Part shown: in pieces, positions 1 through 706 of the stretch
Numbering within the stretch: position 1 is the stretch's first letter
Layout: every line of letters starts with the position of its first letter
Sequence record: AF039880.1
From: a phage
Length of the DNA stretch: 706 bases
Reading direction: 5' to 3' (one strand)
The notes under the pieces: model-generated
Databases searched by the model: none
Told to the model about the DNA's origin: nothing
Seen by the model: only the letters and a program-made list of their open reading frames with translations
Made by a program: the position numbers and the translations under genes

Positions 1-20
1 TGGAAACANGACTTTTTTAA

Positions 21-167
21 TTGACGCTGCANCTGGGTGCTATTAATATAGGTCTTCTAGACGCAGAAGGAAAAGCACCAATATCCTTTGACCCTGTTAA
101 AAAGATAGTTAACGTTGATGGGAGTGTAATAACTAAAACTATTAATGCNGCGAAACTTTGTCATGAC
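21..167 (+). CDS. Probable upstream part of the same gene, read in frame 3 (apparent frameshift relative to 176..556); unknown function.
   Basis: Frame 3 is open from 21 to 167 (stop TAA 168-170) and translates to a plausible Ile/Val/Gly-rich peptide: LTLxLGAINIGLLDAEGKAPISFDPVKKIVNVDGSVITKTINAAKLCHD. It has the same A/T third-position bias as the main ORF. Only about 5 nt and two TAA stops separate it from the start of the frame-2 open frame, so a single indel in gactaatttaacc would fuse them. Confidence 0.4.
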
Positions 168-244
168 TAATTTAACCGGTCAAGANAACGCCAGCAATTT
201 ATACACAGGGTAAAACTTGGGGCGATACAAAATCCGGTATCTGG

Positions 245-556
245 ATGGGCATGGATAATGTTACTGCTAAACCAAAATTAGATATTGGTAATGCTACACA
301 GTATATTCGTTATGATGGTAATATACTTAGGATCTCTAGTGAGGTTGTAATTGGTACCCCAAATGGTGATATTGATATACAGACGGGTATACAAGGGAAG
401 CAAACAGTATTTATCTATATTATAGGTACTTCATTACCTGCTAAACCAACAAGTCCTGCATACCCACCTTCTGGTTGGTCTAAAACTCCACCAAATAGAA
501 CATCTAATACTCAGAATATTTACTGTTCTACAGGTACTCTGGACCCANGTTACTAA
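245..556 (+). CDS. Internal or C-terminal fragment of a protein-coding gene of unknown function; composition suggests a beta-rich structural or surface protein (phage tail-fibre-like is speculative). The ATG at 245 is probably an internal Met, since the frame is open from 176.
   Basis: Frame-2 ORF from the supplied track, 103 codons, ending at TAA 554-556. Third codon positions are strongly A/T (ggt, gat, aat, att, act), which fits coding in a low-GC genome. No Shine-Dalgarno-like purine run lies in the ~15 nt before ATG 245 (aaatccggtatctgg), and the same frame reads through from 176 (PVKxTPAIYTQGKTWGDTKSGIW-MGMDNV...) with no earlier start codon. A Pro-rich stretch LPAKPTSPAYPPSGWSKTPP lies at about 434-493. 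Confidence 0.6.
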   Translation: MGMDNVTAKPKLDIGNATQYIRYDGNILRISSEVVIGTPNGDIDIQTGIQGKQTVFIYIIGTSLPAKPTSPAYPPSGWSKTPPNRTSNTQNIYCSTGTLDPXY

Positions 557-617
557 TCAATTAGTATCGGGAACTAGNTGGTCTGACGTAGTTCAATGGG
601 AGTGGTACAGAAGGTGT
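555..617 (+). CDS. Possible downstream continuation of the same gene in frame 3, after an apparent frameshift near N548; very uncertain.
   Basis: Frame 3 at 555..617 translates to NQLVSGTSWSDVVQWEWYRRC, which is compositionally similar to the upstream protein (an S-W-S motif like SGWSKT, Trp-rich). The frame-2 stop at 554-556 lies 6 nt after the ambiguous base at 548. Frames 1 and 2 are also partly open in the N-rich 3' tail, so the true frame there cannot be resolved. Confidence 0.2.
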
Positions 618-706
618 TGATGGCAGAGNCNGGGGGCTACAAGACAANCGTGGTCCCTGNGAATGTATCTCCTGGCTACTGCTAAATTANCAGCATGGCA
701 TGACTC

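Follow-up and report, generated by a model that had tools for sequence, protein, structure and literature searches.

The frame breaks in a 706-nucleotide phage sequence very probably reflect errors in a low-quality read of the bacteriophage T5 tail fibre gene pb4

The window analysed here is the whole 706-nucleotide stretch of sequence record AF039880.1. In a blastn search of the phage collection, it matched 695 bases of gene D17 of Escherichia phage T5 from end to end on the + strand, with 100% coverage and 95.9% identity. D17 is the 2,067-nt coding sequence of pb4, which is annotated as a straight or central tail fibre protein (YP_006965.1). The window begins at the first base of pb4 codon 350 and ends inside codon 581, and its T5 counterpart occupies positions 86809-87503 of NC_005859. 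The T5 records compared were NC_005859 (RefSeq), AY692264 (the st0 deletion mutant), AY587007 (ATCC 11303-B5), and AY303687 (T5st(H)); these four independently deposited records show zero differences among themselves over the stretch covered by the window.

Nucleotide identity with T5 D17 extends over the full length of the window and exceeds that with every other phage aligned. In particular, the window matches T5 at 469 of 469 bases over positions 36-148 and 191-546. By contrast, GEC_vB_N5, the closest non-T5 phage aligned, is 95.1% identical over those 469 clean bases, and slur09, Gostya9, and S.Hadar 4-5-1 are 90-92% identical. The central straight fibre proteins of Tequintavirus (GEC_vB_N5, slur09, Gostya9 StfB; PDB 8HRE) belong to the same gene family, share the PB4_spike domain, and are collinear with the window, but the identity of the corresponding genes across the whole window is 84.5-91.1% in six T5-like records. 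Because the clean bases are 100% identical to T5, versus 90-95% in the relatives, the sequence comparison indicates that the template was T5 itself or an indistinguishable stock.

The pb4 frame does not run uninterrupted through the window as given, which consists of at least seven frame pieces; one continuous pb4 frame is obtained only once the extra bases found in the window alone are removed. Codons 350-352 lie in frame 1 (1..9, + strand, with N9 in place of A) and are followed by an extra G at position 10, after which codons 353-360 (TFLIDAAT) are read in frame 2 (11..34, + strand), where T16 replaces C and N32 stands for A. The G-run at 35-37 contains one additional G, which shifts the reading into frame 3 for codons 361-399 (36..151, + strand), a piece that is identical to T5 save for N149 in place of T, that was recovered by tblastn at 100% over 39 aa, and that ends with an extra base at 152/153. 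Codons 399-411 (NFVMTNLTGQxN) follow in frame 1 (153..189, + strand, with N186 for T) and end with an extra G at 190. The longest piece, codons 412-530 in frame 2 (191..547, + strand), comprises 357 bases without a difference and aligns at 100% over 119 aa in tblastn. Immediately downstream, the inserted N548 ends the frame-2 piece and gives rise to a false TAA at 554-556. Codons 531-547 continue in frame 3 (549..597, + strand, with N578 for T) as far as the run at 598-600, which has one G too many.

The remaining codons, 547-581, form a degraded 3' tail (599..706, + strand) in which frames 1, 3, 1, 2, 3, 2, and 3 succeed one another and indel placement is ambiguous. Frame 1 can be followed over 599-624 and frame 3 over 627-647, and 649-706 holds four short pieces (frames 1, 2, 3, and 2) and then frame 3. 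The tail contains seven further extra bases (two of them the Ns at 648 and 660), one missing base, five substitutions, and three N-for-base calls. Throughout the window, adjacent pairs of extra bases shift the frame by +2 and all other steps are +1, with the deletion near 667 as the exception.

The first-pass annotation of this stretch, which was made from the sequence alone, had described it as a single longer gene broken by read errors. The comparison with T5 agrees with that description, as pb4 spans all of the segments and is intact after removal of the extra bases. Every open stretch and stop on which the description was based is present: positions 2-43 are open in frame 2 (up to the TAA at 44-46) and 21-167 in frame 3 (TAA at 168-170); a frame-2 TAA at 173-175 precedes a further open stretch of frame 2 at 176-553 (TAA at 554-556); frame 3 stays open to the TGA at 618-620; and frame 1 has no stop between 592 and the end of the window. 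The T5 reading frame lacks the stops at 44-46, 168-170/173-175, and 554-556, and a homologue matches every segment: in a frameshift-tolerant comparison, pb4 aligns across the segments in order and without protein gaps. With pb4 as the tblastn query, the matches have a joint E-value of 6e-98 and cover residues 361-399 (frame 3), 394-416 (frame 1), 412-530 (frame 2), and 531-580 (frame 3). When translated without the extra bases, the window gives a stop-free sequence that corresponds to pb4 350-580. It agrees with pb4 at 219 of 231 residues and has X or a 3'-tail substitution at the remaining 12; that is, the window is collinear with T5 codons 350-581, and the corrected protein differs from pb4 at ambiguous or 3'-tail positions only.

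Some details of the earlier description require revision. A frame change does occur at the break that had been placed at 168-176, but it is not a single shift, as it consists of two +1 insertions, near 152 and at 190. The 12-codon frame-1 piece at 153-189 was absent from the first listing, and its flanking insertions are 3 bases away from N149 and 4 bases away from N186. After 555, frames 3 and 1 had been offered as alternatives, and both are used in succession. Likewise, instead of the one switch placed at the 618-620 break near N629/N631, there are at least seven further small indels after 598. The absence of a comparable open reading frame on the minus strand holds, the longest there being 41 aa, and a minus-strand gene can be rejected since the minus frames produced only noise in tblastn (E >= 0.16).

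The corrected translation matches the Pfam family PF24168 (PB4_spike) with 438.2 bits (E = 2e-131) over profile positions 1-228 of 315, against a gathering threshold of 27 bits, and the corrected fragment matches the pb4 chains in PDB entries 7ZLV, 7ZN2, 7ZN4, and 7ZQB at 2e-153. In the T5 tail tip, pb4 forms the link between pb3, the baseplate hub protein, and pb5, which binds the receptor, and it is composed of three N-terminal FNIII domains followed by a trimeric 110-angstrom beta-helix spike, which bears two small decoration domains and ends at pb5 (Linares et al., 2023; PMC10038345). The junction of the FNIII domains with the spike is a hinge, at which the fibre bends once pb5 has bound FhuA (PMC10038345). 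The first residue encoded by the window is also the first of the beta-helix spike domain, of which the window covers the proximal two-thirds, with the start of the decoration-domain insertion. The gene is a known one, and pb4 is already characterised in both structure and function.

In a global pairwise alignment with T5, the window shows 12 single-base insertions, 1 deletion, 7 substitutions, and 8 N-for-base calls. It contains 11 Ns altogether (at 9, 32, 149, 186, 548, 578, 629, 631, 648, 660, and 690), three of which (548, 648, and 660) are themselves inserted bases. These differences from T5 D17, all of them peculiar to the window, are clustered: they are confined to positions 1-35, 149-190, and 548-706, with none at all in 51-140 and 196-540, and they reach 9-14 per 100 nt in 1-50, 141-195, and 601-706 (14.2 per 100 nt in the last of these). 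In other words, discrepancies and ambiguous calls cluster together in discrete zones, and the intervening sequence is perfect. MAFFT and the pairwise global alignment place the first and last indels slightly differently, so coordinates within 1-10 and 625-671 are ambiguous by a few bases.

The direction of the errors is also uneven. Insertions account for 12 of 13 indels, a one-sided bias with a single deletion near 667, and several of the extra bases lengthen short runs, from GG to GGG at 35 and 598, from AA to AAA at 153, and from CC to CCC at 655. Such an excess of extra bases together with lengthened homopolymer runs points to overcalling, rather than random error. The internal cluster of five discrepancies at 149-190 (N149, an extra base and a substitution at 152/153, N186, and the extra G190) lies between the perfectly called stretches 51-148 and 191-547. 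This arrangement is not what a read decaying only towards its ends would show, and it counts against a simple form of the read-error explanation, which has to invoke a local cause here; a dye blob, a compression, or the join of two reads could supply one.

Frame switches had been noted at or near Ns on first inspection, and this association is far beyond chance. The distance from the 13 indels to the nearest N ranges from 0 to 20 bases (median, 3; mean, 4.7), as compared with a mean distance of 33.8 under random placement of 11 Ns; the observed mean was reached in 0 of 100,000 trials. Ten of the 13 indels are located within 5 bases of an N, a number equalled in about 1 of 100,000 random placements. 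The random-placement test gave the same answer when restricted to the six events at or before 598.

We consider it very likely (probability about 0.96) that the window is an error-laden, low-quality read of T5 pb4, in which the frame breaks would be artefactual and not biological. According to this explanation, the pb4 gene would have been intact in the template and the read left unedited; in regions of weak signal, namely the beginning of the read, 149-190, and increasingly the sequence after about 548, the base caller would have added extra bases and Ns, and each extra base would have advanced the apparent frame by +1, exposing out-of-frame stop codons. Judging from the error pattern, base calling, rather than mutation, is the probable cause, and we infer a Sanger-type platform, as the pattern is typical of single-pass dye-terminator data.

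If the indels were real, the source of the window could be a derivative of T5, or a cloned fragment, whose pb4 gene has decayed to a pseudogene by many frameshifts, as might be supposed from the stops present in every frame of the sequence as given. About 240 bases would then have had to acquire 13 indels and 7 substitutions, and the other 469 none, and no mutational process yields such a pattern or puts changes beside ambiguous calls. An artefact is favoured over a pseudogene because the 20 changes fall in about 240 bases beside ambiguous calls and 469 bases are untouched. Moreover, pb4 links pb3 to pb5 (PMC10038345), and a phage without it would be expected to be non-viable. None of the window indels occurs in the eight aligned phage sequences, namely the four T5 records and four T5-like phages (GEC_vB_N5, slur09, Gostya9, and S.Hadar 4-5-1), all of which are in frame with no stop; the relatives differ in length only by 18 nt, inserted in frame in slur09 and Gostya9. 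The indel chosen for a wider search, the extra G190, was likewise found in no public contig: the 20-mer spanning it, AACGCCAGCAATTTATACAC, had no match in viral, genome, or metagenome contig collections, whereas the T5 version of this 20-mer is present in the T5 genome entry in IMG/VR. Decay of the gene is thus a very improbable explanation. Programmed ribosomal frameshifting, or some other form of recoding in the fibre gene, would be suggested by nothing but the frame changes themselves, and these shifts are made by bases present solely in the window. The reference open reading frame runs uninterrupted for 688 codons in the four T5 records and is intact in the four T5-like phages, and full-length pb4 has been modelled in cryo-EM maps (PMC10038345). 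Recoding was rejected on account of this uninterrupted reference frame, and its chance of being correct is practically nil.

Alternatively, the window might come from a distinct T5-like phage, so that the differences near its ends would represent true divergence combined with some errors. A few of the bases peculiar to the window do recur in relatives: S.Hadar 4-5-1 has T16, and slur09, Gostya9, and S.Hadar have G152. However, divergence would be expected along the whole gene with the frame kept, the clean 469 bases are 100% T5 versus 90-95% in the four T5-like phages, and most of the end substitutions (642, 674, 679, 686, and 699) are found in no relative aligned, nor did any phage genome turn up that combines the end substitutions with an intact frame; we regard a separate phage as highly unlikely. 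There is a small, though somewhat greater, chance that the read errors conceal a minority of true polymorphisms, belonging to a T5 laboratory stock that has not been recorded, the candidates being the synonymous-looking G152, which is common to three relatives, and T16. Even if true, this would amount to a trivial strain variant of a known gene.

Reading the window as a low-quality pb4 sequence, the frame breaks have no biological consequence, and the result is a matter of data hygiene only: the entry should be treated as an error-laden T5 pb4 read, and its annotation as a pseudogene, as a series of short ORFs, or as a recoding site should be avoided. The occurrence of T5 DNA in a sequence collection may reflect phage contamination of an E. 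coli-based library.

Several features of the pb4 region and its annotation were observed along the way. Window 601-659 (pb4 residues 548-565) encodes a collagen-like Gly-X-Y run, GTE GVD GRP GAT GQR GPG, that is, GTEGVDGRPGATGQRGPG, and this G/C-rich run coincides with the worst part of the read. The 18 extra in-frame bases that distinguish slur09 and Gostya9 from T5 pb4 add two more Gly-X-Y triplets exactly at this run. The word "collagen" is absent from the paper on the structure of the T5 tail tip (PMC10038345). With regard to gene boundaries, D17 is annotated at 829-2856 in T5st(H) (AY303687.1), a length of 2,028 nt, versus 2,067 nt in the genome records; therefore, the annotated start codons differ among T5 records, although the DNA of the window is identical. 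The RefSeq T5 genome also carries, on the opposite strand, a "rho-dependent transcription terminator" (NC_005859 84346-86822), which overlaps the window at about 692-706 and takes in the end of D17 together with two small ORFs and the start of ltf. Its length of 2,477 nt is implausible for a terminator, and the feature is probably an annotation quirk.
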